From Escherichia phage VerenaMeyer_Bas76, in the sequence record PQ850632.1: DNA of 43,821 bases. One strand, 5' to 3'. The number at the start of each line of letters is the position of its first letter. Positions within the stretch are counted from its first letter, which is position 1. This document shows, one piece after another, positions 1,823 to 38,053 of the stretch. Position numbers and translations under genes: made by a program. The notes under the pieces were generated by a model. It saw only the letters and a list, made by a program, of their open reading frames with translations, had not been told where the DNA came from and did no database searches.

Positions 1823-3304
1823 ATGTTAACTATGAACGGTCAGAATCAGGGTGTTAAGACAAAACACCGGGAATGGCTGCATCACTTCGATAAATGGCAG
1901 AAGGTACGCCACGCTCTTGAAGGCGACCTTATCCGCTATCTGCGCAACGTCGGGAAGAACGAGCCTGACCAGACCTACGCAGCACAGCGACAGGAAGAAT
2001 ACGAGAACGGCGCTATCTGCTACAATTTCACCAAACGCACGCTGGCGGGGATGACGGGGTCAGTGATGCGCAAAGACCCTGAGCAGATTATCCCGCCTGA
2101 ACTTGAGTACCTGTTGCACAACGCTGACGGTTCAGGTGTCGGGCTGTGGCAGCACGCGCAGGATACGCTGATGGAGATTAACTCGATAGGCCGTGGCGGG
2201 TTGCTGGTGGACGCCCCGGAAACAGCCGCAGCAACGGCGGCAGAGCAGAACGCGGGATTATTAAACCCGGTAATCGCATTCTATACCGCGGAGAACATTA
2301 TCAACTGGAGACTCACCCGCATCGGTTCAGTGAACCGCGTGACGATGGTTGTATTGCGTGAGGCATGGGAATACTCGGAACCAGGCGCTGAGTTTGAAAC
2401 AAAATTCGGCGAGCAATACCGCGTCCTTGACCTGATTGACGGTCGCTACCGCCAGCGCATCTACCGCTTCGATGCCGAAGGTGGCGCACAGGATGAAGTA
2501 ATCGAAATCTTCCCGGAACTCGGCGAACAGTTGCGCGGTAAAATCCCGTTCACGTTCATTGGCGCAAGCAACAACGACGCCACTATAGACGATGCGCCTT
2601 TACTGCCGTTAGCTGAGCTAAATATCGGTCATTTCCGCAACAGCGCAGACAATGAGGAGTCCAGCTTCGTTGTAGGCCAGCCTACTCTGTTCATCGCCCC
2701 AGGTGAGAACATGAGCATGGAGCAATGGAAAGAAGCCAACCCTCACGGTGTGCGCATGGGGTCCCGTTCAGGTCATAACATTGGTTACGGCGGCAATGCG
2801 TTTCTGGTTCAGGCAGGAGAGAACAACCTCGCCAAACAGAACATGCTGGATAAAGAGAATCAGGCCATCCAGATTGGCGCGCAGCTTATCACCCCGACGC
2901 AGCAAATCACCGCGGAATCGGCCCGCCTGCAACGCGGCGCCGACACGTCAGTCATGGCAACAATAGCACGTAATGTAAGCATGGCGTATACCGATGCGTT
3001 GCGCTGGGTTGCGGGTATGCTTGGGCTTAGTGAAGATACTGAGATTGAGTTCAAGCTGAATATGGAATTCTTCCTGCAACCTATGACAGCTCAGGACCGC
3101 GCTCAGTGGATGGCGGATATTAACGCTGGCCTGCTACCCGCCACCGCTTACTATGCTGCGTTGCGCAAGGCAGGTGTGACTGACTGGACAGATGAGGACA
3201 TTCAGAACGCTATTGAAGACGCACCTCTGCCGTTGGGTTCTGTTGCTCAGGTAGCGGGAGAGATTCCGCAGTCGGCGCAGCAACAGGACACCACTCAGCA
3301 GTAA
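1823..3304 (+). CDS. portal protein
   Basis: 493 aa, ATG after AAGAGGA. Sits between terminase and head morphogenesis genes; size and acidic C-terminus are typical of portal proteins. Confidence 0.75.
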   Translation: MLTMNGQNQGVKTKHREWLHHFDKWQKVRHALEGDLIRYLRNVGKNEPDQTYAAQRQEEYENGAICYNFTKRTLAGMTGSVMRKDPEQIIPPELEYLLHNADGSGVGLWQHAQDTLMEINSIGRGGLLVDAPETAAATAAEQNAGLLNPVIAFYTAENIINWRLTRIGSVNRVTMVVLREAWEYSEPGAEFETKFGEQYRVLDLIDGRYRQRIYRFDAEGGAQDEVIEIFPELGEQLRGKIPFTFIGASNNDATIDDAPLLPLAELNIGHFRNSADNEESSFVVGQPTLFIAPGENMSMEQWKEANPHGVRMGSRSGHNIGYGGNAFLVQAGENNLAKQNMLDKENQAIQIGAQLITPTQQITAESARLQRGADTSVMATIARNVSMAYTDALRWVAGMLGLSEDTEIEFKLNMEFFLQPMTAQDRAQWMADINAGLLPATAYYAALRKAGVTDWTDEDIQNAIEDAPLPLGSVAQVAGEIPQSAQQQDTTQQ

Positions 3305-3314
3305 GTTCACCTAT

Positions 3315-3336
3315 AGCCCCGAAAGGGGCTTTCTTA
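3315..3336 (+). terminator. stem-loop AGCCCC-GAAA-GGGGCT followed by TTCTT (attenuator-like)
   Basis: Perfect 6-bp GC stem with GAAA tetraloop and a short T-run between the portal and head morphogenesis genes. Confidence 0.4.
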
Positions 3337-3340
3337 TAGT

Positions 3341-4417
3341 ATGCTATTAACTTTAGCGCCACAGGGTTTATCTATGAGCTTACTTACATCCCTAATCAGC
3401 CATCAGATATGGCTGCAACGCACCGCATCCGGTGAGGTGAAAGACCTCACGCCGTTCATTCAGGAGATAAGGGATGAAATCAAACGGCAGGTGCTGTTAT
3501 TCGGTGACGACGGTCGCAGCACTGCGCGACTGAATAAACTGTTACGCGACCTGGAAGAAGCACTAACCGGTATTACGGGTGACTGGCAAACAAAGCTAAC
3601 AGACGACCTTAAGGAACTGGCGGCGTACGAGGCTGAGTGGAACGTAAAGACACTGACCGCCAACGTAGACGCGGAATTTGTTACGCCTACCGCTGAGCAG
3701 GTATGGGCCGCTGCCGAGTTTCAACCATTATCATTGAGCGACAAGCCCGTTGATTTCACCAAGCTGATGTCTGGATGGGGCGAAACGGAAGTAGCACGTC
3801 TTGTAACTGGAGTTAAGATGGGCTTTGTGCAAGGTCAAACCACACGGCAGATTGTTAAGAATGTTGTTGGCGCTGGTGGACTAGCCGACATCTCAGAACG
3901 TAACGCGACTACGGTAATCCGCACCGCGCTGTCCCACGTATCCAACGAGGCCCGTAACGAGACGTACCGCCAGAACGACGACATCATCGAGAAGTACGAG
4001 TGGGTGTCAACGCTTGACAGCCGCACCAGTACGATTTGCAGGGTCAGAGACGGGATGACGTGGGAAATTGGTAAGGGGCCGATGCCCCCAGCCCATCCGA
4101 ACTGCCGGTCGTGCACGGCTCCGGTAATCAGTTCCGAGTTCGACTTCCTCGATAAAGGCGCAAAACGCGCGGCTAAAGGCGCGGAAGGTGGCACTCAGGT
4201 AAGCGCAGACACCACTTACTACGAGTTCCTTAAACAACAACCGGCGTGGTTTCAGGACCAGGCGCTCGGCCCGGTGCGAGGTAAGATTTTCCGTAACAGC
4301 GGTATATCGCCGGAAGAGTTTCGCGTAATATCTGTAGATGGTTTCGGGAATCCGCTCACGCTTAAGCAGATGGCGGAACTCGATAAACGTGTTGCTGATT
4401 ATCTGAAAGGGGAATAA
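3341..4417 (+). CDS. head morphogenesis protein (SPP1 gp7 / Mu F-like)
   Basis: 358 aa, directly after portal. Composition and position match the minor head protein family usually found after portal. ATG 3374 is an alternative start. Confidence 0.6.
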   Translation: MLLTLAPQGLSMSLLTSLISHQIWLQRTASGEVKDLTPFIQEIRDEIKRQVLLFGDDGRSTARLNKLLRDLEEALTGITGDWQTKLTDDLKELAAYEAEWNVKTLTANVDAEFVTPTAEQVWAAAEFQPLSLSDKPVDFTKLMSGWGETEVARLVTGVKMGFVQGQTTRQIVKNVVGAGGLADISERNATTVIRTALSHVSNEARNETYRQNDDIIEKYEWVSTLDSRTSTICRVRDGMTWEIGKGPMPPAHPNCRSCTAPVISSEFDFLDKGAKRAAKGAEGGTQVSADTTYYEFLKQQPAWFQDQALGPVRGKIFRNSGISPEEFRVISVDGFGNPLTLKQMAELDKRVADYLKGE

Positions 4418-4878: not shown

Positions 4879-4880
4879 TA

Positions 4881-4908
4881 AAAGGCCCCATTAAGGGGCC
4901 TTAGTTTT
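4881..4908. terminator. bidirectional intrinsic terminator (AAGGCCCC-ATTA-AGGGGCCTT)
   Basis: GC-rich hairpin with T-run on the plus side (AGTTTT) and A-run/T-run on the minus side. Sits between convergent genes 4417..4878(+) and 4908..5111(-). Member of a three-copy terminator family (see 12138 and 24196). Confidence 0.65.
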
Positions 4909-5111
4909 CAACGGAATCTTGTGTTTAAATCCTGCTCGTGGACGACCCTCAGAACAGTGTCATAATCCCCGTATCTTCCAGGTTCAAATATATCTAATGC
5001 CTTGTAAGCAGACATTGCGTCAGGGAAAACCTGCAGAACCTTTTTAACCCGGCACAAGTCACCGTCGAACTCTTCATCGAACTCTTGAACTACTTCGCAA
5101 ATTGCATACAT
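4908..5111 (-). CDS. hypothetical small acidic protein (67 aa), opposite-strand island gene
   Basis: ATG at 5111..5109 preceded by GGAGGTG on the minus strand. Driven by a TTGCAC-N17-TACTAT promoter copy and ends at the bidirectional terminator. No recognisable domain. Confidence 0.5.
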   Translation of the reverse strand: MYAICEVVQEFDEEFDGDLCRVKKVLQVFPDAMSAYKALDIFEPGRYGDYDTVLRVVHEQDLNTRFR

Positions 5112-5138
5112 TTTTCACCTCCTGTTTAAGTTAACTGA

Positions 5139-5167
5139 ATAGTACCCTATTATATTGGGGTGTGCAA
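5139..5167 (-). promoter_or_regulatory. sigma70-type promoter TTGCAC-N17-TACTAT (early promoter family copy 1)
   Basis: Minus-strand reading TTGCACACCCCAATATAATAGGGTACTATTCA. Near-identical copies at 13943..13971(-), 36609..36637(+) and 38025..38053(+). Confidence 0.55.
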
Positions 5168-5233
5168 ACTATTTATTTACGTATTCCAGTTATTCCACCG
5201 AATTGTAAATGTTGGAATAAACTATTCGAATAG

Positions 5234-5262
5234 TTGACTTTTCACTAAAAATATGATAAGCT
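5234..5262 (+). promoter_or_regulatory. candidate promoter TTGACT-N17-TGaTAAGCT overlapped by palindrome ACTATTCGAATAGT
   Basis: -35 TTGACT at 5234-5239; extended -10 (TG at 5254-5255, hexamer TAAGCT at 5257-5262). The 14-bp perfect palindrome at 5221-5234 abuts the -35. Confidence 0.3.
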
Positions 5263-10967: not shown

Positions 10968-12136
10968 ATATGGCTACAACTCCTTTTAAGGGCGCGAATA
11001 CCGCGCAATTCTATGTGGCGGAAACTACCCCTGGCGTAACACCGACTAACCCGGTATGGTCGCCGTTGCGTAACACGGGCGGCGTTCCCGCTGTAACCCG
11101 CGATGCACTGACTTCCAACGAACTGGACGGCAGCCGTGAAACTACATCCATCCGAACCGGTAACAAGCAGGTTAGCGGGGAGTATGCCATCGAACTTAGC
11201 TCTCGTAGCCAGGATGATTTCCTTGCGGGAGCGATGACTTCTACGTGGCAAGCTGGGGTAGAGATTACTGGCGCCGAAATTACGGTCGCCCCAGCAGGTA
11301 AAACATTCACCCGCGCTGCCGGTAGCTTCATTACTGACGGTGTAGAAGTTGGCGACCTTATTGCGTTCACCGACTTAACCGGCGACAACGCAAAACCGTT
11401 TATCGTGACCGCGGTTTCCGCTCTGGTAGTTACGGGCGCAGGTATTCAGCACACGCTGACAGCAGAGACAGTAACCACTGACGCAAAAACTGGCGACAAG
11501 CTGGAAACCGGTAACGCGTGTAAGACGTTCTCCATCCTGACGTGGTTCAAGGGCCAGTGTGGTAACCCGGACGCGTACATGCTGACCAAAGGTGTGGAAA
11601 TCTCTGGCTTTACCGTAGAGCAGGCGGTTAACGCCATGGTCACCGGCAGCTTCCCGTTCATCGGCCTGAGTCAGGAGATTCTTACCGCGCCGCCGTCTGG
11701 CTCTGATTTCTCTCAGGTTACGTTCACCGATGAGCCGTTCTCGTCGGTAGATGTGTCGGTGTTCGATGGCTCCACGCCGTTGCGTTGCGATACTCTCACC
11801 ATCACCAACGACAACGGAGCTTCCGCGCAGTTCGAACTCGGTAACAGTAGCGTGGCGTTCGTCGAACGTGGACGCGCAGCTAACACATTCTCTATCTCTG
11901 GCAAGCTGTACGACATGGCGATGATTCAGAAGTTTATCAACGAGCAGCAGGTAGAGATTAACTCTATTCTGGCAGGGGTAAACGGGGCTATGTCTTTCAG
12001 TTTGAAACGTGCAGAGCTTACGGCGGTTACACCTGAGATTGGTGGGCCTGAGTCAATCACTCAGTCCATTGAAGGCCAGGCTACCGGCAATCAGTACCAG
12101 TCGTCTATCGTAATTCAACGTATCACCTACGCATAA
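10964..12136 (+). CDS. major tail (tube) protein (putative)
   Basis: 390 aa, last gene before the tail chaperone and tape measure set. Ser/Thr/Gly-rich. Confidence 0.5.
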   Translation: MNMATTPFKGANTAQFYVAETTPGVTPTNPVWSPLRNTGGVPAVTRDALTSNELDGSRETTSIRTGNKQVSGEYAIELSSRSQDDFLAGAMTSTWQAGVEITGAEITVAPAGKTFTRAAGSFITDGVEVGDLIAFTDLTGDNAKPFIVTAVSALVVTGAGIQHTLTAETVTTDAKTGDKLETGNACKTFSILTWFKGQCGNPDAYMLTKGVEISGFTVEQAVNAMVTGSFPFIGLSQEILTAPPSGSDFSQVTFTDEPFSSVDVSVFDGSTPLRCDTLTITNDNGASAQFELGNSSVAFVERGRAANTFSISGKLYDMAMIQKFINEQQVEINSILAGVNGAMSFSLKRAELTAVTPEIGGPESITQSIEGQATGNQYQSSIVIQRITYA

Positions 12137-12137
12137 A

Positions 12138-12166
12138 ACTAAGGCCCCTTTCGGGGCCTTTTTCTC
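12138..12166. terminator. bidirectional intrinsic terminator (AAGGCCCC-TTTC-GGGGCCTT)
   Basis: Hairpin with TTTTTC on the plus side, sitting between convergent genes 10964..12136(+) and 12165..12395(-). Same family as 4881 and 24196. Confidence 0.65.
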
Positions 12167-12395
12167 ACTCATCAATATTACTTCGATACTCCCGTAACTT
12201 CTCCAGACTTTCAATTGCTTCTGCTAAGTCGGTTCCGGTGTCCTTATGCCCGCGAAGACCCATGCACAATAACTTCTTCAATGCGTGCTGTAGTGCGGGG
12301 TCACGGATGTCGAAGGCACGGAGAACATCGTAAACGTCTACGGTCATAGTGCTGCCGTGAGTGTTTGTCATTGTTCGGTTGTATTTTGAAGTCAT
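12165..12395 (-). CDS. hypothetical protein (76 aa), last gene of the opposite-strand cassette
   Basis: Start overlaps the upstream stop (ATGA coupling with 12392..13522). No recognisable domain. Confidence 0.45.
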   Translation of the reverse strand: MTSKYNRTMTNTHGSTMTVDVYDVLRAFDIRDPALQHALKKLLCMGLRGHKDTGTDLAEAIESLEKLREYRSNIDE

Positions 12396-13522
12396 CCCAG
12401 CATCTCCGGTGAAATAGTTAAACGTGCGACCTCGCCATATTCGGCGCTATAAGTAATTACATTTGCACTACGGCCTGACATCCACCCGCCGCGGGAGGCA
12501 TAGGCGTCTTTAGCCGCTAAGGTGCGGTGTTGCTCAACAATCATGTTACGGCTTTCTACAATCTTCTGGTGGTGCAGGTGGCCTACGTGGGCGTAGCTAT
12601 AGACACTCTCACCGAACGCTTTGCGGAATTTGGCAATCATAACCGGTTCGATAGCATCGAATCGCGCCTTATGCCCGTGGTGAAAGAACAACGTCGTTTT
12701 TCCGTGTTGCACCATCTTGTAAACATCCGGCGACGTATCGACAATCACTCGGCTGTCGTTCGAATATAAAACTGTGAACATTTCAGCCAGCCATACAGAG
12801 CCTACAGGGTCATGGTTCCCCTGTACGATAAGCAAGCGAACATTTTTATGTTTAACCAGTGCCATATCTACAACACGGCGTACCATACGAATCATGTAGC
12901 GGACGAGTTTCTGGTAGCGAGTGTCTGCGTCCAACACGTGACGCGACTCGGGTGTAACGGCATCCAGACTATCGAAGTGCGCGAAATCACCCAGCAGGTT
13001 AATAACTCCTGTTCCTGCATCCGGTGCTTTCTGAAACGCCGCGTCGAACCAACGAGAGAACAGGTCTTCCGCAATCTTTATATCCCAGTCGTCGCCGCTC
13101 TCGTCGGCCCAGGCAAGCATACCGAGATGGAAATCAGATACCGTGTAAAGATTGAGTAGCTTGTCGTCGCGTTTGGCTCGAGTCGCTTTAGCCGGCGCAA
13201 CTGGCGTAATCTCTGACTTCATGCCTTCAATCACGGCTTTCATCAACTCGACCTGACGTTCAGCGTCGGTGTCTGTCTTAACCCATTGCAACTTAGTATT
13301 GCCGAACTCGTCTACCAGAGACGACGTCCCTTTAATCTTGTAGCCGTCTGGGACAAGGTGGCTAACGTCACGCCCGTGGCCTACACCTTTCTTAGCCAGC
13401 TTCGCTTTACGGATACGAATAACTCGGTCTGAGATGCCGTATTTACGGGCGATGTCTACATTCTTCATCCCGGCGTTCAATTCTTCCTGTAACTGTTCGT
13501 CGGTTATTTTCTTCTGGGCCAT
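12392..13522 (-). CDS. HTH-domain protein fused to calcineurin-like metallophosphoesterase
   Basis: 376 aa. N-terminal HTH (VDIARKYGISDRVIRIRKAKL). Ordered metallophosphatase motifs: SDFHLG, GDFAHFD, GNHD, HHGH, GHLHH. Confidence 0.7.
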   Translation of the reverse strand: MAQKKITDEQLQEELNAGMKNVDIARKYGISDRVIRIRKAKLAKKGVGHGRDVSHLVPDGYKIKGTSSLVDEFGNTKLQWVKTDTDAERQVELMKAVIEGMKSEITPVAPAKATRAKRDDKLLNLYTVSDFHLGMLAWADESGDDWDIKIAEDLFSRWFDAAFQKAPDAGTGVINLLGDFAHFDSLDAVTPESRHVLDADTRYQKLVRYMIRMVRRVVDMALVKHKNVRLLIVQGNHDPVGSVWLAEMFTVLYSNDSRVIVDTSPDVYKMVQHGKTTLFFHHGHKARFDAIEPVMIAKFRKAFGESVYSYAHVGHLHHQKIVESRNMIVEQHRTLAAKDAYASRGGWMSGRSANVITYSAEYGEVARLTISPEMLG

Positions 13523-13587
13523 GCTTACTTCCTCGTGTTTAGGATTTGTCCTATTTAACCACAGTGGATTCCTTTAAATAAAGGCAA

Positions 13588-13914
13588 CTATTTACTTTCT
13601 GCGCCTATCGCCCACCCTGTCATTACCATTTGCAGACGGGTGGCTGTCAGTAGGCTATAGAAAGCATCTCCGTTTTTCTCTACCGAACGTATCACTGTGT
13701 AGGTTACGGCCTGCGGGGGTAGGCCCGATTTACCGACATCTACGGCGGCCTCGCATTCACGGACTGTGGAGTCCTTAAATGCCTTTACAATAGTAGGGTC
13801 GGCTTTATCAAGCACACCAGAAGTCATAAGAACAGATTCACTAAATACCTGTTCGCACGGGGCTCCAAAAGTAGCAAAAGACATAAAACCCAGAGCTAGT
13901 ACTAATTTACGCAT
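13588..13914 (-). CDS. secreted/periplasmic small protein with signal peptide (108 aa)
   Basis: N-terminus MRKLVLALGFMSFATFGA is a classic signal peptide. ATG preceded by GAGGAA. First gene downstream of promoter copy 2. Confidence 0.55.
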   Translation of the reverse strand: MRKLVLALGFMSFATFGAPCEQVFSESVLMTSGVLDKADPTIVKAFKDSTVRECEAAVDVGKSGLPPQAVTYTVIRSVEKNGDAFYSLLTATRLQMVMTGWAIGAESK

Positions 13915-13942
13915 AATTATTTCCTCAGTAAGTTACATGTGA

Positions 13943-13971
13943 ATAGTACCCTATTATATTGGGGTGTGCAA
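13943..13971 (-). promoter_or_regulatory. sigma70-type promoter TTGCAC-N17-TACTAT (early promoter family copy 2)
   Basis: Minus-strand reading TTGCACACCCCAATATAATAGGGTACTATTCA, identical over about 30 nt to the copy at 5139..5167. Confidence 0.55.
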
Positions 13972-22013: not shown

Positions 22014-24194
22014 ATGTCAAGCGGATGCGGTGACGTTTTAAGCCTGGTGGATTTACAAACCGCCAAGAAACACCAGATTTTCGAGGCCGAGGTTATCACC
22101 GGTAAAGCTGGCGGTGTAGCTACGGGTGCTGATATTGATTACGCAACTAATCAGGTTACGGGACAGACACAGAAGACGTTGCCAGCCGTGTTGCGTGACG
22201 CCGGGTTCAGACCTGCGCCATTCACATTCGAAACAGGTGGGACTTTGGGCGTTAACGACGCTGACCTGGCGGTGTTGTGGCCAGGGCCATCAGGCGACGG
22301 CAACTATTATGCATGGAAAGGTGCCCTGCCAAAAACCATCCCGGCATCTTCAACCCCGGCGTCTACGGGCGGAGTAGGCCAGACCGCATGGGTTGCCGTT
22401 AGTGAAGCTGCATTGCGCCGTGATTTGGCCCTAAGCACTGGCGCAGGGTTAGTTGGGACAACATCCGGCAGGACCGTACAGGCAGAGTTTGACTACCGCA
22501 AGACTCAAGCAGCAAAAACAGAGATAAACATACTTGACTACCTTCCAGCTAACGTGATCGCAGCTCTAAACGATGTTAACGCGTCAAAAGCACTAGGAAG
22601 CGTAAGGACATACATTGAGCAGGCTTTAGCGGCAGCAACTAGCGAGAATATCGGTACTGGGGTTACTTTACGTTTCCCGGCTGGGTTCTTTTGGCTTGAT
22701 TCTACTCTTAACCTTCCAAAAAGGACGCGTATTGTTGGGGTCTACCCAGAAACATACTTTATGGCTCTCCCTGACTTTACTGGCACTAACGTAATTGCCG
22801 GTTCCACAGGACCCGCTATAGTCGCTATTGATAACACAGGACAAGACCCGTTTTATATTGAAGGTTTCCAGATAAACGCAGATGGTTCCCAGCCGAATGT
22901 GGTTGGGCTGCACATTGGCGGCTGCCGTAATTCCGTCGTCCGTCGGATATCTGTATCTGGAACCTTCGATGCTGCTGTTGTTATCCACCCTAAAAACGCA
23001 ACATCTGGAGACGTGGAGAACCTGGAATTAAGCCACGTATGGACATTAGGCGGTGGGCTTGTGCTCAGGACTAATACAGATATCGACCGTGGAAATTTAA
23101 CAGGCCTGTCATTCCGGGATTGTATGTTTTTCAGCACAATCGACAACAACCCTTCATGGGCGACATCTGGCAACCCTAGTATCAGGTTCTCCTGCCATGT
23201 AGACCGACAGATTTTTGCATGTACATTCGACCGTGTAGGATGGGCGAGTCGCGCAACATACGCCATCTATTCAGAAAGCCTAGCCGGAAATAGTGCATCT
23301 GATGTCAAGGGCTTCCGCGATATTCATTTTACAGATTTCCACGGAGAAGCCCACAATGCCGATGGGTCATTAACAGCGGACTGTACTTTTGCCCTTCTTG
23401 CGAATATGCGTAACAGTACATTTACTAATATCCAACGCTCCGGCGCTGTGACTCGCGGCGGCATTATCATGGATGGGTGCGAATACGTAACATTCAACTC
23501 AGTATCATTTGCGGACCCTAATATCACAACAGGAACAACGACACCTTGTTGCGTATACCAGAACTCCACCAACAGATTTAATAGATTTATTAACTGTGAC
23601 TTAACAGATGCAACCGGGAGCATGTTTGATTTAGCCGGTTGGACCGTGTCATCCAGTGTAATGTATTATTTTAAGGGTCTTTTTTGGGACGATAGTGGGA
23701 CAAGTACCTGGGAGAGTGAACAAATGTCTTCAAAACCATTTGTTCTTTTTAAAAGGTCTGCGCTTAACGCCAATAACGGTTCTGCTTACCCGCAGGAATC
23801 AGGCGTAACTATGGCTACTTCTGGTGATAATCTACAGGTTACCTTTGCACGAGACGCTACCACAAAAACATTCACAATACCAATCACAACTACAAACGCT
23901 GTTTTCAACAACCACGACCGTGTTTATGTCCTATTCCGTCATCAGTTCACTAGCTATGGCACTGGCACAGTTGTAAAAATAGGGCTTGGAACATCCTATG
24001 TGACTATCTCACCTCAGACAGGGAACGATTATTTTGCGGCTATTAGCTTAGCACGTAGCCAGGCTACTAGTTTTAATATACAAGTAACCTATAGCGGGGC
24101 CTCAGCTGACTGCGGAATATTAATTAGGGATTTAATTATTTCTGACAGGATGCCGTGGGTGCCGAACTTCACCAAAGCATTACTTTGCGATTAA
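22014..24194 (+). CDS. tailspike / receptor-binding protein with beta-helix (putative polysaccharide depolymerase)
   Basis: 726 aa, last structural gene. N-terminal roughly 140-aa anchor-like domain, then long Asn/Gly/Thr/Ser-rich repeats typical of right-handed beta-helix tailspikes. Confidence 0.6.
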   Translation: MSSGCGDVLSLVDLQTAKKHQIFEAEVITGKAGGVATGADIDYATNQVTGQTQKTLPAVLRDAGFRPAPFTFETGGTLGVNDADLAVLWPGPSGDGNYYAWKGALPKTIPASSTPASTGGVGQTAWVAVSEAALRRDLALSTGAGLVGTTSGRTVQAEFDYRKTQAAKTEINILDYLPANVIAALNDVNASKALGSVRTYIEQALAAATSENIGTGVTLRFPAGFFWLDSTLNLPKRTRIVGVYPETYFMALPDFTGTNVIAGSTGPAIVAIDNTGQDPFYIEGFQINADGSQPNVVGLHIGGCRNSVVRRISVSGTFDAAVVIHPKNATSGDVENLELSHVWTLGGGLVLRTNTDIDRGNLTGLSFRDCMFFSTIDNNPSWATSGNPSIRFSCHVDRQIFACTFDRVGWASRATYAIYSESLAGNSASDVKGFRDIHFTDFHGEAHNADGSLTADCTFALLANMRNSTFTNIQRSGAVTRGGIIMDGCEYVTFNSVSFADPNITTGTTTPCCVYQNSTNRFNRFINCDLTDATGSMFDLAGWTVSSSVMYYFKGLFWDDSGTSTWESEQMSSKPFVLFKRSALNANNGSAYPQESGVTMATSGDNLQVTFARDATTKTFTIPITTTNAVFNNHDRVYVLFRHQFTSYGTGTVVKIGLGTSYVTISPQTGNDYFAAISLARSQATSFNIQVTYSGASADCGILIRDLIISDRMPWVPNFTKALLCD

Positions 24195-24195
24195 A

Positions 24196-24224
24196 ACTAA
24201 GGCCCCAAACGGGGCCTTTTCTCT
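24196..24224. terminator. bidirectional intrinsic terminator (AAGGCCCC-AAAC-GGGGCCTT)
   Basis: Hairpin with TTTTCTC at the junction of the convergent late (plus) and replication (minus) operons. Third copy of the terminator family. Confidence 0.65.
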
Positions 24225-24360
24225 ACTCTTCTGATAACTTCTCCAGTACAAACGCCAGTTGTGCATTAGCGGCATCCCTCTGTTGCCGTAGTCGTAGAAC
24301 CTCTTCTTCGAGTTCCTTGATACGTTTTTGCAATGCTGGAATCGGGGCTATGATGTTCAT
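24223..24360 (-). CDS. hypothetical 45-aa coiled-coil peptide (below ORF-track cutoff)
   Basis: ATG 24360..24358 overlaps the upstream stop (ATGA). Translation MNIIAPIPALQKRIKELEEEVLRLRQQRDAANAQLAFVLEKLSEE. Ends at the terminator. Confidence 0.3.
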   Translation of the reverse strand: MNIIAPIPALQKRIKELEEEVLRLRQQRDAANAQLAFVLEKLSEE

Positions 24361-26941: not shown

Positions 26942-27257
26942 TTCTAAATTCCTTATATTGTTGGGGTATGTGCTTACTATAATAGTCTGCTATTAGGGTG
27001 TCAATCTGTTTTATCGAACCAACGACAAAAACATTTGCGCCACGTTTACGTATACGCTCGTGTTCCCGTAGCTGGTGCGGGTCTGGCTTAGTGTTTTCGT
27101 CTTTCTTCACCTCGACGAACCAGACGATGCCGCCGGGTAGAATTGCCAGCAGGTCAGGAGCGCCTGAACGTCCTTCGTAGGAAAGTTTACGAACGAGGCC
27201 ACCAATGGCCTCGAATCGCTCTTTTGCGTATTTCTGGATGCGGCCCTCTTTAGTCAT
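26925..27257 (-). CDS. VRR-NUC domain nuclease
   Basis: 110 aa. PD-(D/E)XK-type motifs GAPDLLAI...VWFVEVKK...QLREHE, characteristic of VRR-NUC. Confidence 0.7.
   Translation of the reverse strand: MTKEGRIQKYAKERFEAIGGLVRKLSYEGRSGAPDLLAILPGGIVWFVEVKKDENTKPDPHQLREHERIRKRGANVFVVGSIKQIDTLIADYYSKHIPQQYKEFRNETRI
26975..27003 (-). promoter_or_regulatory. sigma70-type promoter TTGACA-N17-TATAGT (internal, inside the 3' end of the VRR-NUC gene)
   Basis: Minus-strand reading TTGACACCCTAATAGCAGACTATTATAGT. Same family as 30678 and 32978. Confidence 0.45.
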
Positions 27258-27620: not shown

Positions 27621-29781
27621 AGCGTTTTAACTCCTGACCTTCCGCTACAAGAGGGAACCCCTCCGCCCATTCTGGTAATTCGCACATCAATCGCTCAAGC
27701 TCTGCGACATTGTATTCCGGCGTATCTGGAGTTTCGCAGATAATCTCATCGTGGACATGAAGTACAATTGGATAACCGTTTGCTTCTACGTTCAGCAGCG
27801 CGTTGGCCAGCAAATCACGGCACAACGCCTGAGTGCAGTTTTCCACGAGTTTACCGGAATATGTGTACTGGAACCCCCACTGTCGGGTTAGCTGATTTTC
27901 GCCCTGGTACTTGATGCGCACGTTAGTAGACACCTTCCCGTCTTCGTCTGTCTCTTTTGATACGCTTAACCCGACGCCTGGATAAGACATAACACGACCC
28001 GACGGCAGCGTCATACGCAACCACCAACCAGCGACTTTGTTGCCGTTGTTGTCTGTTTCTACGTTACGCGAAAACTTAACCCCGCGCGGCCCTGCGGTGA
28101 ACTCTTTACCCGGATTGCGGATAGCCGCCATAGCTGCATCTTCAATATCGCGCCAGAATTGGACTATTGCTGGGTTAGCTTCCCGGTACATGCGCTTTAA
28201 AGCGTCACAGGTGCGCCAAACTTTCTTATCAAGAATATATGATGGTCGGTCATCTTTTTCACCAGGACGTGGCGGTCGCTTGGCTTCCTGAATACGCGCC
28301 CATTCATATCCTCGTGCGGTAGCGGCCCAGATATGGTCAGGGAAAGTCCCGTCTAAAGTACGGGCCATATCGTTCAAATCAAGCCCTAAGTTTTTAGCAA
28401 ACGTGACGAAAGCCCCTACACCCCCCGCGTAACCCAGTCCGAGAACCATTGCTTTGGCTATTTGTCTTTGGTCCTTTGTTACGTCGTCATAACTAACGTT
28501 GAACACGGTTGATGCGAGTTTCTTATACACATCAACCCCGTTTACAAATACTTCTATTAAATCGTCTTCGCCAGCCAGCCACGCCAAACCACGGCCTTCA
28601 ACGTTAGAGTAATCGGCTACGACAAACTTATGCCCTGCTTCCGGGATAATGCAGCTACGAACCGTCGACGCCGTTAGCTTGGCTACGTCGAAACGGCGAT
28701 GCGCACGACCCTTAAGTAGCGCTGAAATGCCCTTATCCAGTTCATCATCGTGATAGTACCCGCGCGCCAGGTTCTGTGGTTGGAAGCCTTTACCTGCGAA
28801 CCGTAACGTACGCTTGGCCCCACCGTACTGGATGCAACCACGGCGGCGGTCGTCCGACGAGCGACCCAACAGCAGCGGGTTATATTTCGTTGACGCAGTG
28901 GACGCGGCCCCGAGGCGCATTTCTATAATTGTGCGGGCGTCGTCGGGTAAATCCTCATCCACCAGCAGGTCGTTAAGCGTTGACTTCTGTGCATTGTGTA
29001 TGCGGTGCGCGGGCGCAAGTTCACGCAGAATCGGAAGGAAGTCTTTACCGGTAAGCGAGCCGCCGTATTTACGTTGAGCTTCTTCCTGTAACTGTGCCTT
29101 GTGCTTCTCTACGGCTTCAATCGCGGCTTCCGCCAGTGCGACGTCAACCTTAAATCCGCGGTCGTTGATTAACTGGTCAAGCTCCAGTACACGGTCTTCG
29201 AACTCGGAGTTACCCCAACGCGGCAGCTTATGGAAGACTTCACGCATCGCAGTGATGTCGCTCACGGCGTACCTGATGAACATCGCCCACTCGTCAGGGT
29301 GAGTTTCTGCGGTGTAGCGGCGGATTTTGTAGTTCTTCGGCGTCGGTTTAGAGAAACGCTTAATCAGAGCCTTGCCGCGTTTATCTTTCGCGTTGTCTGC
29401 AGACACGCCCAGCACTTCGCACAGCGCATCAAGAGAACCCGGCAGCGCGTGACGAAATGCCCAAATCATCGTATCAATGGTGTTGCTTACCGGAATATCA
29501 AAGCCCCAGCAGTGTTTCATGATGAGCCTGTCGAACATTGAGCCGTTGTGCCACACCATCTTGATGCGGCTGTTTGGCTTCACCAGGCGGCGTAATGCGC
29601 GATGCAAATCACCCGGCATGTCGCTGCCGTCTGTGCAATCCCATACCTGCACAGGCTGGTCGTCAAAAGCATATGTACAAATAAGCACTTCGGTGGTTGG
29701 ATGTTCGGCGTAAGCGTAGGAACCGACTTTCTTTAAATCGGCTTCGGAGAATGTTTCAAAGTCCAGGTATAAGTAGCTCAT
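27610..29781 (-). CDS. DNA polymerase I (family A) with 3'-5' exonuclease domain
   Basis: Exo I motif LDFETFS; polymerase motif A DYSNVEGR, motif B RQIAKAMVLGLGYAGG, motif C VLHVHDE. ATG at 29781 (preceded by AAGGAAA) preferred; the ORF track extends to a GTG at 29850. Confidence 0.9.
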   Translation of the reverse strand: MSYLYLDFETFSEADLKKVGSYAYAEHPTTEVLICTYAFDDQPVQVWDCTDGSDMPGDLHRALRRLVKPNSRIKMVWHNGSMFDRLIMKHCWGFDIPVSNTIDTMIWAFRHALPGSLDALCEVLGVSADNAKDKRGKALIKRFSKPTPKNYKIRRYTAETHPDEWAMFIRYAVSDITAMREVFHKLPRWGNSEFEDRVLELDQLINDRGFKVDVALAEAAIEAVEKHKAQLQEEAQRKYGGSLTGKDFLPILRELAPAHRIHNAQKSTLNDLLVDEDLPDDARTIIEMRLGAASTASTKYNPLLLGRSSDDRRRGCIQYGGAKRTLRFAGKGFQPQNLARGYYHDDELDKGISALLKGRAHRRFDVAKLTASTVRSCIIPEAGHKFVVADYSNVEGRGLAWLAGEDDLIEVFVNGVDVYKKLASTVFNVSYDDVTKDQRQIAKAMVLGLGYAGGVGAFVTFAKNLGLDLNDMARTLDGTFPDHIWAATARGYEWARIQEAKRPPRPGEKDDRPSYILDKKVWRTCDALKRMYREANPAIVQFWRDIEDAAMAAIRNPGKEFTAGPRGVKFSRNVETDNNGNKVAGWWLRMTLPSGRVMSYPGVGLSVSKETDEDGKVSTNVRIKYQGENQLTRQWGFQYTYSGKLVENCTQALCRDLLANALLNVEANGYPIVLHVHDEIICETPDTPEYNVAELERLMCELPEWAEGFPLVAEGQELKRYAK

Positions 29782-29945: not shown

Positions 29946-29973
29946 TTAGTAAAAAGGCCCAATGAAGGGCCTT
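29946..29973 (-). terminator. intrinsic terminator/attenuator between the SSB-like and polymerase genes
   Basis: Minus-strand hairpin AAGGCCC-TTCATT-GGGCCTT followed by TTTTTA. Confidence 0.45.
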
Positions 29974-29992
29974 AGTTAAATTGATTCAGATA

Positions 29993-30619
29993 TTAGCGGC
30001 GGCGACGTTCGCGGCGCGGTGCTTCATCTTCTTCGTCGTCTTCCAGGTCATTGACGCTCGCAGCGACTTTAGAACCGCCGAACGCTTTGCCTTCGCCAAC
30101 GTATTTAATCGCCAGCAGGTTAACGCCGAGGACTTTGTATTTCTGGCTGAACCAGATTTCAACGCTTACGTTAGCTAAGCATCCGCTGTAAACCTGTTCA
30201 CCTTCAATCTGTTCACCGTCTACATTGAAGTCCTGTTCTACCTGAGTCTCACCTTTTTTAGAGGTTACAATCAGCGGCTGCTTCTGTGCCTTCGCTTTGA
30301 AGTAGAAGCCTTCCGGGAAGTCTTCAAACGGATTGTCACGCTCGGCAATGTCTTTAATCGCACATTTATCCATGTGCTTACCTTCGCCGTAGTTGGACTT
30401 CATCCACTTCTCGGCGGCGGCTGCACCTAACGCTTCTTCAACTACAGCGTAAACGGTGTCGTAGAGCGCGTCGATTTGCGCGTGGTCGGACGGCAGGATA
30501 ATAGTCGCGCTGTACTGACCTTTAGTGATTGAACCATCATCATTTTCACGGTCTTTTTCGCGTTCGAATACGTTAACCCAGGCAGTGTTTACTTTACGCA
30601 GATTTAATTTCAGTCCCAT
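29993..30619 (-). CDS. single-stranded DNA-binding protein-like (putative)
   Basis: 208 aa. Sits alone under a strong promoter between the nuclease and polymerase genes. Acidic tail DLEDDEEDEA followed by an Arg-rich end. Assignment is tentative. Confidence 0.4.
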   Translation of the reverse strand: MGLKLNLRKVNTAWVNVFEREKDRENDDGSITKGQYSATIILPSDHAQIDALYDTVYAVVEEALGAAAAEKWMKSNYGEGKHMDKCAIKDIAERDNPFEDFPEGFYFKAKAQKQPLIVTSKKGETQVEQDFNVDGEQIEGEQVYSGCLANVSVEIWFSQKYKVLGVNLLAIKYVGEGKAFGGSKVAASVNDLEDDEEDEAPRRERRRR

Positions 30620-30677
30620 TTGATTTCTCGCTTTTCAGTTTCAGTTTACTCCGGGATCTGCCCGGCCAGTGATTAGA

Positions 30678-30706
30678 ACTATAATAGCTAACTATTCATG
30701 TGTCAA
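30678..30706 (-). promoter_or_regulatory. sigma70-type promoter TTGACA-N17-TATAGT
   Basis: Minus-strand reading TTGACACATGAATAGTTAGCTATTATAGT, nearly identical to the promoter at 32978..33006. Confidence 0.55.
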
Positions 30707-30895
30707 ATAAAATTTTGCAATAGGGATTATGTTCTCGAAATTAAGCATATTGGCCGGTTCGAACTCATCCTCTACAGGGTCGTATCGCATCATGGTACCG
30801 TTCAAGAACGTGAACGATTCCGAGTGTAGATACCCATCCCAGCGCCATACCATCAAAAAATCTTTATCAGTCGGCATTTCATTTACTTGAATCAT
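30692..30895 (-). CDS. hypothetical protein (67 aa)
   Basis: ATG 30895..30893 overlaps the nuclease stop (ATGA). The Shine-Dalgarno GAGGAGGA lies inside the last codons of the nuclease gene. The ORF track extends to 30925. Confidence 0.4.
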   Translation of the reverse strand: MIQVNEMPTDKDFLMVWRWDGYLHSESFTFLNGTMMRYDPVEDEFEPANMLNFENIIPIAKFYLTHE

Positions 30896-32148
30896 TCTAA
30901 ATCCTCCTCTGTAACTTGATTCCACTCAGGACGTTTGTCATCCGCCGTTGCGACGCATGGCGCACCGGGCTTACGGGTAATGAAGTCTTTCAGTTCTTCT
31001 TCCGGTACAATTTTAACCGCTTCGGTCGGTGTCATAAGAACTACCTTTTGCAGCATAGTACCGTACTTCTCGAATACTGCGTCGGTATCTTTCCACGCAC
31101 GATTACCGGGGCGACCTTCAACCAGTTTGTATCCTGGCACTTTCTTACCTGAATGCAAAGCAGCAGCCATCGCTTTCTCAACCTTGTCAATGTGCTGGCG
31201 CAACAAAGGCAACTTCTCATATTCAGCTACGAGTTGCTCCGGCGTAAGTTCCAGCGCAAAGTCGTCCTCCAGTTCTTCGGCAAGTACAGAATTAACAGTC
31301 TTTGTACGCGCTGCGCACTGTTCAGAGAACCGACACCACTGACAACCGTCGACAGACGGCTTAAAGTCCGACGCTTTCAGGTTCTTCTTGCCTCGGAAAT
31401 ACGCATCAAGGGCTAACAGTGCGCGTTTCTGTGCGAACTTAGCGAACAGTTCCAGACCTTCAACCGAGATGTCCCACTCCGACGCGCCCCCGGCGTACGG
31501 CTGGAAGATTACCAGGCGCACTACTGAGATGTTATAACGTCTCTTGAGTCGGCGGTAAACACCGAGAGCGTAGAGCATAAGCTGCTTGTTTTCTTTCGCT
31601 TCGACATGATGCCGTCCTGTTTTCAGGTCGCCGATAATGAGCATATGCTCGTCAGTGTTCGCCAGTTCCTGAACGGCAACGAGGTCGGCGGTTCCGAATG
31701 TCTCTACGCCTTCATATCCCGGATGCAGAACCTCAGTAAGATTTACGCGCATCTCCAGCTTCGCGTAAGTCGCCACGTCGATAATCGCTTTGCAGTAATC
31801 GGTGTACTTTGTACACTGGTCAATCATGTCCGCCGTAATCAGTACCGCACCTTTCATCGGACTGATTAGCGCCTTAATCTGACCTTTACCCTCATCCAGC
31901 ACGTAAGCGCCGACTTCTCGTTCTAACGGCAAAGCAGTTCCTTTGATGTACTGATTCAGGTGAATCTCAGATATCGTGTGCATAGCCGTGCCTGATATGG
32001 CGGCTTTACCTGACGTGTTAGGAATGTCTTTTTCACATGCCAGCGATGCACTGCACGCCAACCATTTCTTAGCACCAGACGGCGACAGTAAGGCGTGTAC
32101 ATCGTTATTTCCGCCGCGTTCCTTTAAAACCATGCTCTGCTCTCCCAC
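30892..32148 (-). CDS. PD-(D/E)XK exonuclease (Cas4/RecB-like) with Cys cluster
   Basis: 418 aa. N-terminal SPSGAKKWLACSASLAC, catalytic core IGDLKTG, QLMLYAL motif, C-terminal CQWCRFSEQC cluster. Ends VTEEDLE. Confidence 0.7.
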   Translation of the reverse strand: MGEQSMVLKERGGNNDVHALLSPSGAKKWLACSASLACEKDIPNTSGKAAISGTAMHTISEIHLNQYIKGTALPLEREVGAYVLDEGKGQIKALISPMKGAVLITADMIDQCTKYTDYCKAIIDVATYAKLEMRVNLTEVLHPGYEGVETFGTADLVAVQELANTDEHMLIIGDLKTGRHHVEAKENKQLMLYALGVYRRLKRRYNISVVRLVIFQPYAGGASEWDISVEGLELFAKFAQKRALLALDAYFRGKKNLKASDFKPSVDGCQWCRFSEQCAARTKTVNSVLAEELEDDFALELTPEQLVAEYEKLPLLRQHIDKVEKAMAAALHSGKKVPGYKLVEGRPGNRAWKDTDAVFEKYGTMLQKVVLMTPTEAVKIVPEEELKDFITRKPGAPCVATADDKRPEWNQVTEEDLE

Positions 32149-32306
32149 TGGTCAATTAAATGCCGTGTCTTGTGGTCGCAATGTAAGGCCCATCCATACA
32201 TCGACTCGAAGACATAAAAGTCACTTTTAACGAAAGTCGTACGCTTAATCTGCGACAGGTGACGGCCTATATCTTTAGGCCGTGGTACTTTTCCTAAGTA
32301 CGCCAT
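32124..32306 (-). CDS. hypothetical protein (60 aa)
   Basis: On the ORF track; overlaps the start region of the nuclease gene. No motif recognised. Confidence 0.3.
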   Translation of the reverse strand: MAYLGKVPRPKDIGRHLSQIKRTTFVKSDFYVFESMYGWALHCDHKTRHLIDQWESRAWF

Positions 32307-32445: not shown

Positions 32446-32946
32446 TTATTCTTCTTCGAAATACTTGTTCTTAATCGCCGTCAGGCGTTTCAGGTATTCA
32501 GCCAGGTCTTCGTCTTTAATCGCGGCAATCTTCATTTTCTTACCGGTGAACTCCTCCAGCAGTTCATCGGAATCGTCGCACGCAGCATCGCTAGGACCTT
32601 CGTTAATTGCATCGTCGATAGCCTGAATCTGGTCACGAAGAGACTGGTAATCGACCTCTTCTTTCTCTTCTTCTGGTTCTGGAGTCGGCTCCTCTACTTT
32701 AGCTTTACGCGGCTTGCGTTTCGGCTTCTCTTCTTCTGCTGGTTTAGCGTCAACGATGTCTTCACCTTCAACAGGGATTTCTTTTGTTGCTTCTTTTTCG
32801 CACTCAGCTACCGCTTCTTTGGTATACACTACCGTCTCTACTTCTAACGGCGCTGCAACTTGTGCTGACTGTTTCGCACTGTTCGCAGCAATCAGTTCAT
32901 GTGCAACTACGAAACGTTCCAGTAATTTTAAGAATTGTTCTAACAT
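32446..32946 (-). CDS. highly acidic protein, first gene after a strong early promoter
   Basis: 166 aa. Long Glu/Asp/Pro/Lys-rich region (EEPTPEPEEEKEEVD...), ends YFEEE. ATG preceded by the conserved leader AAACGAGAGGAGAGA. Confidence 0.6.
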   Translation of the reverse strand: MLEQFLKLLERFVVAHELIAANSAKQSAQVAAPLEVETVVYTKEAVAECEKEATKEIPVEGEDIVDAKPAEEEKPKRKPRKAKVEEPTPEPEEEKEEVDYQSLRDQIQAIDDAINEGPSDAACDDSDELLEEFTGKKMKIAAIKDEDLAEYLKRLTAIKNKYFEEE

Positions 32947-32977: not shown

Positions 32978-33006
32978 ACTATAATAGCGAACTATTCACA
33001 TGTCAA
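32978..33006 (-). promoter_or_regulatory. sigma70-type promoter TTGACA-N17-TATAGT
   Basis: Minus-strand reading TTGACATGTGAATAGTTCGCTATTATAGT. Divergent from the plus-strand promoter of the XRE gene. Confidence 0.6.
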
Positions 33007-33030
33007 TGGGCTTTTCTAAAATAATTAATA

Positions 33031-33039
33031 TGGTACTAT
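33031..33039 (+). promoter_or_regulatory. candidate extended -10 promoter (TGgTACTAT) for the XRE-type HTH gene
   Basis: TG at 33031-33032 and hexamer TACTAT at 33034-33039 followed by the ACTATTCA box; no good -35. Confidence 0.35.
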
Positions 33040-33070
33040 TCACATATCAACTGACTAAGGAGTAATTGAC

Positions 33071-33286
33071 ATGCAACCATCTGAACTAGGCATCCGTGTA
33101 GAACAACGCCGCAAAGAACTCGGCATCTCCCAGCGCCGTCTGGCGGTCCTGGCTGGCGTTTCCCAGGGCGCGATTAACCAGCTTGCGCTCGGGGTAACTC
33201 AGGACGTCCGGCCGGCAACGCTGTTCAAACTGGCGGAAGTTCTGGAAGTAGACGCCAAGTGGCTGGCGTTAGGTGAAGGGGCTTAA
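33071..33286 (+). CDS. XRE/Cro-type helix-turn-helix transcriptional regulator
   Basis: 71 aa. HTH signature ELGISQRRLAVLAGVSQGAINQL. Lone plus-strand gene between two minus-strand operons. Confidence 0.7.
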   Translation: MQPSELGIRVEQRRKELGISQRRLAVLAGVSQGAINQLALGVTQDVRPATLFKLAEVLEVDAKWLALGEGA

Positions 33287-33301: not shown

Positions 33302-33303
33302 AC

Positions 33304-35720: not shown

Positions 35721-36011
35721 TTACCGTTTAGCCAACTCTTCCAGCAAATTTTTATACTCTTCAAAATATTCCTCGACCAAATCATCGCCGAAATAGAAGT
35801 CGATATACTCGAGATTATCTCTTACGTTAAGCGATGCCGACATGGTGCTTAGTTGGCGTAAGCTAATTAGCTTCATTTCTGTTTCTACACAGAAAGGCCG
35901 GTAGGTATCAAGATGGCAAGAGATATTGAAACATAAGGCGAACTCTCCCGCCACGGTGTGGACCATATACACTTCGTTTTCTGCTTTATTGTGGAAAATT
36001 ACGCCTTTCAT
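35721..36011 (-). CDS. hypothetical protein (96 aa)
   Basis: ATGA-coupled to the upstream HTH gene. No motif recognised. Confidence 0.45.
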   Translation of the reverse strand: MKGVIFHNKAENEVYMVHTVAGEFALCFNISCHLDTYRPFCVETEMKLISLRQLSTMSASLNVRDNLEYIDFYFGDDLVEEYFEEYKNLLEELAKR

Positions 36012-36190
36012 TTCACGTTCTCCTTAATCCATGCTTCGACTTTATTACGGTCAAATGTTCCCGGTAAACGGCGGCCCATAACCTTAATACAGCAGTCAGG
36101 GAATTTGCCGCTGCGCAACCAGTTATTAATGGTCTGACGTGTCACCCCGATACGTTCAGCTACTTCATTCTGCGTCATATAATGCGACAT
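36008..36190 (-). CDS. AlpA/excisionase-like HTH DNA-binding protein
   Basis: Motif MTQNEVAERIGVTRQTINNWLRSGKFP. ATG at 36190 preceded by AGGAGAT; the ORF track extends to 36304. Confidence 0.55.
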   Translation of the reverse strand: MSHYMTQNEVAERIGVTRQTINNWLRSGKFPDCCIKVMGRRLPGTFDRNKVEAWIKENVK

Positions 36191-36608: not shown

Positions 36609-36637
36609 TTGCACACCCCAATATAATAGGATACTAT
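36609..36637 (+). promoter_or_regulatory. sigma70-type promoter TTGCAC-N17-TACTAT (early promoter family copy 3)
   Basis: TTGCACACCCCAATATAATAGGATACTATTCA followed by the leader CGAAACGAGACAGAGGAG. Confidence 0.55.
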
Positions 36638-38024: not shown

Positions 38025-38053
38025 TTGCACACTAAGATAGAATAGGCTACTAT
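38025..38053 (+). promoter_or_regulatory. sigma70-type promoter TTGCAC-N17-TACTAT (early promoter family copy 4)
   Basis: TTGCACACTAAGATAGAATAGGCTACTATTCA followed by the leader ACACAAACGAGAGGAGAGACGGAAG. Confidence 0.55.

Follow-up and report, generated by a model that had tools for sequence, protein, structure and literature searches.

Escherichia phage VerenaMeyer_Bas76 (PQ850632.1; 43,821 nucleotides, analysed over its full length and called the window here) carries at 5139-5167 a short promoter-like element that recurs around the genome, with two hexamers 17 nt apart and a spacer that hardly varies between copies. The first-pass annotation regarded such near-identical spacers as a trait of a host-type promoter family. 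The spacer of a sigma70 promoter is normally unconstrained in sequence. What, then, keeps these spacers alike? We found that seven elements share a 14-bp palindrome, AATAG-N4-CTATT. On balance we favour, at a little better than even confidence, the reading that the seven are sigma70 promoters under a shared operator and an autoregulated Cro-like repressor, most likely a 71-amino-acid helix-turn-helix (HTH) protein.

One palindrome in two promoter classes

The class A pattern, TTGCAC-N17-TACTAT, has 4 sites in the window (0.18 expected), identical to the four sites of TTGCACAC, which occurs exactly 4 times. The four copies reported at 5139, 13943, 36609 and 38025 are thus confirmed, the first two of them on the minus strand. 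Class B, TTGACA-N17-TATAGT, has 3 sites (0.18 expected), all on the minus strand. These three copies had also been reported, without their strand, and were recovered, except that the one placed at 26975 starts at 26976. In an unbiased repeat search of the genome the promoter elements made up the top direct-repeat families (D1, D2 and D4), with A1 and A2, both on the minus strand, identical over 32 nt (family D4). The elements and their candidate operators, together with a third class and an imperfect copy, are as follows.

5139..5167, minus strand: class A element A1, palindrome AATAGGGTACTATT at 5138-5151; heads the one-gene cassette 5111..4908
13943..13971, minus strand: class A element A2, palindrome at 13942-13955; heads the cassette 13914..12165
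36609..36637, plus strand: class A element A3, palindrome AATAGGATACTATT at 36625-36638; upstream of the rightward small genes 36663/36672
38025..38053, plus strand: class A element A4, palindrome AATAGGCTACTATT at 38041-38054; between two plus-strand genes
26976..27004, minus strand: class B element B5, palindrome AATAGCAGACTATT at 26981-26994 in the spacer; within the 3' end of the upstream open reading frame (ORF)
30678..30706, minus strand: class B element B6, palindrome at 30683-30696 in the spacer; upstream of the gene for a single-stranded-DNA-binding/annealing protein, 30619..29993
32978..33006, minus strand: class B element B7, palindrome at 32983-32996; divergent from the HTH gene at 33071 and upstream of 32946..32446
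33027..33040, plus strand: imperfect operator A5, AATATGGTACTATT, with 1 mismatch; 30 nt before the gene of the 71-amino-acid HTH protein
41591-41619, plus strand: class C promoter element, TTGACT-N17-TATATT, 10/12 hexamer matches; the orthologous site of phage Jersey is annotated as a promoter
41586-41599, plus strand: degenerate palindrome ACTAGTTGACTATT, centred on the -35 of the class C element

AATAG-N4-CTATT occurs in 7 exact copies against 0.07 expected, and all of them fall within the seven class A and B elements, one each. With up to one mismatch allowed there are 12 copies against 1.18 expected. It is the most frequent 5+5 palindrome both in the window and in the related phage AnnaReinhart_Bas75, and the next most frequent ones are terminator hairpins. 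In class A the palindrome lies at about -19 to -6, where its right half supplies the TACTAT -10. In class B it lies at about -25 to -12, within the spacer and inverted relative to class A, as its flanks reveal. Because the two registers are 6 bp apart and the orientations relative to the hexamers are opposite, the palindrome is a separate element and not a by-product of the hexamers. All ten half-site bases are invariant, whereas the 4 bp between the half-sites vary across most copies (GGTA, GATA, GCTA, CAGA, TTAG, TTCG). The likeness of the spacers is therefore due to the shared palindrome in its different registers rather than to promoter function, which the first-pass annotation missed and which suggests an operator. 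Judged by this pattern, the palindrome is most likely the operator of a dimeric DNA-binding protein.

In every class the palindrome overlaps the core promoter: it covers the -10 of class A, falls in the class B spacer and is centred on the class C -35. Its distance to the start codon is 26-63 nt, with the correct orientation, at all nine sites. A5 lies 44 bp from the B7 operator, centre to centre; it overlaps a TACTAT -10 candidate and sits just downstream of a candidate promoter, TTCACA-N16-TAAAAT (32995-33022). We discarded an RNA-level reading of the palindrome, as, given the hexamers assigned here, it is located upstream of the expected transcription start in both classes and hence outside the transcript. 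Rfam gave no match anywhere in the window.

Some further copies stand apart from these promoters. A degenerate palindrome, AATAGTTGACTTTT (5229..5242, plus strand), adjoins ACTATTCGAATAGT (5217-5230), in which the same half-sites point outward and make up a perfect 14-bp palindrome (CTATT-CG-AATAG). The two overlap by two bases, so that three half-sites follow one another at a distance of about 80 bp from the A1 operator, and the whole site (5217-5242) is conserved in Kagunavirus LM02P1. As a promoter the site at 5229 was rejected, since its best -10 candidate matches 3/6, and it is retained as an operator-like sequence only. A one-mismatch copy, TATAGTATGCTATT (3335-3348, plus strand), directly follows a terminator hairpin (3315-3330) and overlaps the ATG of a head-morphogenesis gene (3341). 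It is likewise conserved in LM02P1, and may be a chance occurrence or a translational or transcriptional control point.

Conservation across the Guernseyvirinae

The window is a complete Kagunavirus genome, i.e. that of a virulent siphovirus of the subfamily Guernseyvirinae. This follows from its match to Bas75 and from the shared gene order. A 10-kb query (30000-40000) matched Bas75 at 96.8% identity over 96% of its length, and the other matches were Kagunavirus and Jerseyvirus phages. The Bas75 record (43,870 bp, circular) has the gene order of the window: terminase first, plus-strand structural genes to about 24 kb, minus-strand replication genes from 24 to 36 kb, then small rightward genes and finally lysis genes.

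For a broader comparison, IMG/VR loci around the HTH gene were fetched, 34 of them Kagunavirus-like and 11 Jerseyvirus-like. AATAG-N4-CTATT is the top or joint-top palindrome in 34/34 Kagunavirus-like loci. Of the 11 Jerseyvirus-like loci, 9 have it as the top palindrome and 2 as a tied one, and its form in Jerseyvirus is the longer TAATAG-N4-CTATTA. Orthologous promoter regions were located via the downstream coding sequence. Since palindrome-anchored profiles are biased toward the half-sites, they were compared with genomic background, and a plain MAFFT footprint was spoiled by indels and mixed genera. The exact palindrome is present in 24/25 distinct Kagunavirus B6 regions and in 20/28 B5 regions, against 47/3000 random 113-nt windows. 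Where sites were chosen for exact half-sites, variation is seen in the central bases and in the linker from the -35 to the palindrome, including spacers of 17 versus 18 bp. The half-sites of A5 are identical in 36/36 Kagunavirus-like loci, with a single central-base difference in one locus.

Cornellvirus lacks AATAG-N4-CTATT and has instead a related, non-palindromic motif, (A/T)TAC-N4-CTAAT, at about 8 promoter-like intergenic places and in both orientations; two copies flank the promoter region of the HTH gene. The Cornellvirus loci are L003 (FSL SP-031) and L004 (Shemara), with motifs in the latter at, e.g., 6886, 8277, 27891, 31402, 35221, 35298, 38500 and 39103. Some Kagunavirus loci carry an extra exact palindrome in the context GTAACAGGTCAATAGGTTACTATTTGGCT... 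(L013 at 13351, L017 at 14662, L021 at 14750, L079 at 36765). It is free of sigma70-like hexamers and has no counterpart in this window.

The elements as probable host promoters

Class B hexamers match the sigma70 consensus at 11/12 positions and head replication and recombination operons; going by sequence, these are very likely real sigma70 promoters. Class A elements, which score 7/12 as TTGCAC-N17-TACTAT or 8/12 when read as TGCACA-N16, are likely ones too. They retain TTG in the -35 and TA...T in the -10, with AT-rich flanks upstream. Their orientation is fixed by A4, which sits between two plus-strand genes. The A4 orthologue in Jerseyvirus reads TTGACA/TTGACG-N18-TACTAT, and the Jersey and Cornellvirus orthologues of B7 pair TATAGT with TTGCA(C/T) as the -35. 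A perfect TATAAT in A1-A3 was considered as the true -10 and rejected, as it lacks a conserved -35 at 16-18 bp upstream, whereas the conserved TTGCAC is 17 bp from TACTAT.

Sigma70-type hexamers are conserved at orthologous sites in relatives, and four such sites are annotated as sigma70-like promoters in the Jersey GenBank record (29238-29266, 32925-32953, 39893-39920 and 42343-42371). Taken with the architecture and the orientation of the elements, this bears out, at the level of sequence, the earlier designation as host-type promoters. No gene for an RNA polymerase, integrase, CI-type repressor or S24 peptidase is annotated in the near-identical genome of Bas75. Since no phage polymerase is annotated there, the host sigma70 holoenzyme is the enzyme to be expected at these promoters.

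This expectation disagrees with a published label. The repeats themselves are already known in close relatives: fBC-Eco01 has seven copies of a 20-mer resembling TGAATAGTACCCTATTATAT (consensus tgAATAGTa-ccTATTat-T), which the authors obtained with PHIRE and took for promoters of a phage RNA polymerase ('phage RNAP promoters'; PMC9825357), and seven PHIRE promoters were described for phage Golestan (PMC7203180). Together with the annotated Jersey promoters, these are the same sequence elements at orthologous places. We consider a phage-encoded polymerase barely conceivable, as the elements carry sigma70-type hexamers at 17-bp spacing and, beyond the Bas75 gene list, all ORFs of at least 700 aa match other annotated functions; the five in the window correspond to the Bas75 tape measure, tail protein, tailspike, DNA polymerase and helicase-primase. 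The readable reports on fBC-Eco01, Golestan and Jersey give repeats or hexamers only and mention neither the palindrome nor its two registers nor a link to an HTH gene. The open-access text searched yielded nothing that describes the palindrome as an operator or connects it with the HTH gene, no described regulator or operator in this subfamily, and no published account of how the transcription programme is controlled in Kagunavirus or Jerseyvirus.

Two candidate binders

Two small HTH proteins come into question as binders of the palindrome.

33071..33286, plus strand: gene of the 71-aa HTH_3 protein (Pfam HTH_3, E=2.3e-12)
36011..36190, minus strand: gene of the 60-aa HTH_17 (Xis/MerR-like) protein, the alternative candidate
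~36251->36223, minus strand: candidate promoter of the HTH_17 gene, TTGCTT-N17-TATACT, without the palindrome

The 71-aa protein probably binds the operator, though our confidence in this assignment goes only somewhat beyond even. Among solved structures it matches phage 434 Cro best (E=2e-6, residues 6-68 of 71), followed by 434 repressor (E=1.4e-5) and P22 C2 (E=6e-3). Regulators of this class recognise palindromes of 14-18 bp; 434 operators are 14 bp long and resemble ACAAG-N4-CTTGT, and P22 operators contain TTAAG-N4-CTTAA. Both thus have the 5-4-5 form with inner AG/CT that is seen in AATAG-N4-CTATT. In the alignment to 434 repressor the equivalents of Gln28 and Gln33 are kept, while Gln29 is replaced by Gly and Ser30 by Ala. 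Judged by the 434 complex, this pattern of kept and replaced residues presumably suits the half-site AATAG, which has the bases of ACAAG at positions 1, 4 and 5 but not at 2 and 3.

The gene neighbourhood points to the same protein. The B7 operator and A5 lie upstream of 33071, with an analogous arrangement in Jersey and Shemara, and motif copies flank the promoter region of the HTH_3 gene in Kagunavirus, Jerseyvirus and Cornellvirus. From this layout, the 71-aa protein would regulate its own gene through the perfect B7 operator and the imperfect A5. In LM02P1 the HTH_3 protein and the palindrome are unchanged while the recognition helix of HTH_17 is altered. More distant HTH relatives, encoded in unrelated viral contigs, adjoin palindromes that have other half-sites but share the xxxAG-N4-CTxxx geometry: TAAAG-N4-CTTTA in L054, L055 and L057 (~1878-4010), beside a CI-like repressor with HTH and S24 peptidase domains, and TGTAG-N4-CTACA in L068, where three copies (9878, 10280, 10309) flank the gene of a 133-aa HTH protein. 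It looks as if a single operator design had given rise to natural variants of different specificity.

Weighing the alternatives

Several observations weigh against a shared operator bound by the HTH_3 protein. The flanks of the motif are conserved yet asymmetric (TATAATAG...CTATTCA), a feature for which a symmetric dimer has no need. Class A has weak hexamers (7-8/12), and the opposite strand of some of its sites carries an equally good promoter. Since close relatives conserve the promoter region as a whole, the phylogenetic footprint lacks sharpness. The recognition helix of HTH_3 reads QGAINQ in Kagunavirus and QSLITH in Jerseyvirus, both with the same core palindrome, and the Jersey helix is closer to QSAISH of Cornellvirus, whose motif differs. 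Searching the open-access literature, we found no transcription start sites or binding data for any Guernseyvirinae phage.

The same promoters and operator might instead be served by the 60-aa HTH_17 protein (36190..36011), which we hold to be rather unlikely. Its Kagunavirus and Jerseyvirus versions are 80% identical and differ little in the recognition helix, and it is absent from Cornellvirus; among phage records it is confined to the Kagunavirus/Jerseyvirus type (442 records). Its phyletic distribution therefore fits that of AATAG-N4-CTATT better than the distribution of HTH_3 does, a further point to the disadvantage of the latter. The only Kagunavirus RNA-seq that we found, on K1B4, has coarse population time points from 5 to 120 min and no mapping of transcription starts; by gene order, its HTH_3 gene is expressed in the middle phase and its 'early' HTH gene is probably HTH_17. 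On the other hand, the HTH_17 protein of LM02P1 has diverged (68% identity; helix TRQTINNWLR changed to SPMTLNRWLR) while the palindrome is the same, in 8 copies, and Cornellvirus keeps the related motif in the same places without any HTH_17. The candidate promoter of the HTH_17 gene lacks the motif, no significant solved relative was detected, and the usual targets of small HTH proteins of the excisionase type are direct repeats or asymmetric sites and not 14-bp palindromes. Overall, the covariation of protein and operator across the genera gives conflicting signals for both HTH candidates. Activation of the MerR type requires spacers of 19-20 bp, and none is present here.

Do the elements need an operator at all? 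Plain sigma70 promoters whose spacers are alike through shared ancestry or gene conversion among duplicated cassettes are an unlikely explanation in our view, even though the identity of A1 and A2, the alignment of class A with the reverse strand of class B over 25-30 nt, which suggests a common ancestral cassette, and the conservation of whole promoter regions among close relatives would all agree with it. Duplication leaves unexplained why the half-sites are invariant while the centre differs in most copies, why the palindrome is symmetric in two registers and orientations, why it occurs in two genera at both orthologous and non-orthologous sites, and why degenerate copies flank the HTH gene. 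A host transcription factor is very unlikely as the binder. Nothing supports it directly; the motif is AT-rich and the variant at 41586 (ACTAGTTGACTATT) resembles the core of the trp operator. We know of no E. coli or Salmonella factor with the consensus AATAG-N4-CTATT, the ARG box has its arms TGAAT/ATTCA at a different spacing, and the motif is changed in Cornellvirus, which has the same host genus as Jerseyvirus. Even less probable is a loading site for a processive antiterminator of the Q/AlpA type that would permit read-through of the genome's many intrinsic terminators. Terminator-like hairpins are indeed numerous, and AlpA binding elements sit between -35 and -10 (PMC9371919), like the class B palindrome. 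However, a single AlpA molecule binds a 6-bp element that is no palindrome, contacts DNA with residues numbered up to 142 and places an N-terminal ring segment in the RNA exit channel (PMC9371919), whereas the window offers just two candidates, plain HTH proteins of 60 and 71 aa, and the class A site overlaps the -10.

The promoters on the opposite strands allow one more variant, which we judge to be improbable. At A2 the opposite strand carries GTTACA-N17-TATATT (13932-13960), facing the tail-chaperone gene and the tail genes, and at A3 it carries TCGATA-N17-TATATT (36648-36620). Through the operators at A2 (13942), A3 (36625) and A5 (33027), the small HTH protein might then act as a direction switch that shuts the early-direction promoter and spares or favours the opposite one. 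These sites are divergent and intergenic, and at each the operator falls where two promoters of opposite orientation overlap, with TTGCAC-N17-TACTAT on one strand and GTTACA/TCGATA/TTGATA-N17/18-TATATT-like sequences on the other. If this were true, one portable promoter-operator cassette would provide a minimal early-to-late programme, e.g. toward the tail genes at 14079, without an RNA polymerase or sigma factor of the phage's own.

Leader sequence, cassettes and neighbouring features

The first-pass annotation joined the promoters to a conserved leader, 5-7 nt before the start codon, in one modular unit. Its sequence, AAACGAGAGGAGAGA, is a purine-rich Shine-Dalgarno region that ends 5-6 nt before the ATG in each of three copies.

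38064-38078, plus strand: AAACGAGAGGAGAGA, exact
32966->32952, minus strand: AAACGAGAGGAGAGA, exact
38495-38509, plus strand: AAACGAGAGGAGAGA with 1 mismatch

These copies stand, while those given as variants, near 36649 and 41631, match only loosely. Chance does not account for two exact 15-mers, but the looser pattern is not enriched (3 versus 0.89 expected, a count reached by 6/100 shuffles), nor is the 10-mer core (4 versus 3.18 expected). The exact leader follows A4 and B7 and a variant follows A3, whereas the leaders of A1, A2, A5, B5 and B6 are unrelated. We identified no promoter element upstream of the copy at 38495, which overlaps the upstream stop codon and precedes an internal gene (38517). 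The proposed unit thus goes too far: AAACGAGAGGAGAGA is a shared translation-initiation region and not a constant part of a promoter-leader module, and it is probably shared through common ancestry of some cassettes.

The elements had also been said to mark an early regulon, which is at present a supposition, and to delimit inserted islands, which holds for the minus-strand cassettes 4908-5111 and 12165-13914. Both lie in the plus-strand structural module, and each has a class A element at its start and a terminator-like hairpin at its end.

4902-4882, minus strand: terminator-like hairpin at the end of the cassette 5111..4908
12160-12141, minus strand: terminator-like hairpin at the end of the cassette 13914..12165

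Two 40-nt copies of TAAAACTAAGGCCCC...GGGGCCTTTT, 80% identical, are located at 12134-12173 and 24192-24231, exactly where plus- and minus-strand gene blocks converge, and look like shared bidirectional terminators. A similar pair is found at 4879-4906 and 29950-29977.

Back-to-back with the candidate HTH_17 promoter (36223-36251, minus strand) lies a strong promoter, TTGAAA-N18-TATAAT (36288-36317, plus strand; 11/12). Both lack the palindrome and may be an unregulated immediate-early pair. The plus-strand promoter is followed by about 220 nt and then by a terminator-like hairpin at 36517-36536 (span 36288-36545). We judged this span to be without a fitting ORF; a listed 55-aa ORF (36282-36449) begins upstream of the -10. 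The 222-nt stretch after the promoter has a folding energy of -72.4 kcal/mol (z = -4.5), with a long hairpin at about 36344-36376. Its 5' 175 nt occur only in Bas75 and one IMG/VR contig, while the 3' part of about 100 nt is conserved out to Jersey-like loci. The stretch 36288-36545 could be a small non-coding early transcript.

A Cro-like model and its meaning

Occupancy of core elements excludes RNA polymerase from bacterial promoters as a general rule. As the operators overlap the spacer, the -10 or the -35, their occupancy is expected to do the same, i.e. to repress. In the model of a shared operator with a Cro-like repressor, in which the activity of the promoters, the binding and its direction of effect, and the choice of binding protein are all inferred, the host polymerase would fire all these promoters on infection. 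Class B would drive the leftward replication and recombination genes, and class A the small genes that run rightward as well as both cassettes on the minus strand within the structural module. The Cro-like protein would be made from its own promoter; its dimer would occupy the operators and exclude RNA polymerase, so that the whole promoter set would be turned down together as the protein accumulates. Finally, it would turn down its own gene through the weaker A5 site.

Such a mechanism is an ordinary, standard kind of phage gene control. With 434 Cro/repressor (and also with P22 C2/Cro) it shares a small HTH_3 protein, here of 71 aa and similar to 434 Cro along its whole length. As in 434 OR/OL, the presumed operator is a two-fold symmetric 14-bp sequence of 5-4-5 form with inner A-G/C-T that overlaps the core promoter, and the regulator gene lies in a divergent promoter region with two sites. 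In contrast to 434, the Bas75 annotation contains neither a CI partner nor an integrase and hence no lysogeny switch; single sites are scattered over 8-10 promoters around the genome instead of forming a tripartite OR/OL, and the half-site is AATAG rather than ACAAG, with binding being a prediction here. Lambda Cro is an early, autoregulated small repressor that lowers transcription from PL and PR as it accumulates in lytic growth. By analogy, the turn-down logic proposed here would be the same, whereas this phage is strictly virulent and its many promoters are dispersed and include cassettes within the structural module. The controller (C) proteins of restriction-modification systems are likewise small HTH_3 dimers, acting on palindromic C-boxes in their own promoter. 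They are absent among the 12 solved structures matched by the 71-aa protein at E<=0.01, and they govern one operon as opposed to a genome-wide promoter set.

Kagunavirus and Jerseyvirus phages are common candidates for therapy and biocontrol and small chassis for phage engineering. One palindromic operator across 8-10 promoters, with a Cro-like candidate encoded beside two of the sites, offers a concrete and cheaply testable model of how such a phage may time its genes without a polymerase of its own, and the published phage-RNA-polymerase label of the repeats is thereby corrected. For engineers, it shows which short sequences to keep or remove when genes are inserted.

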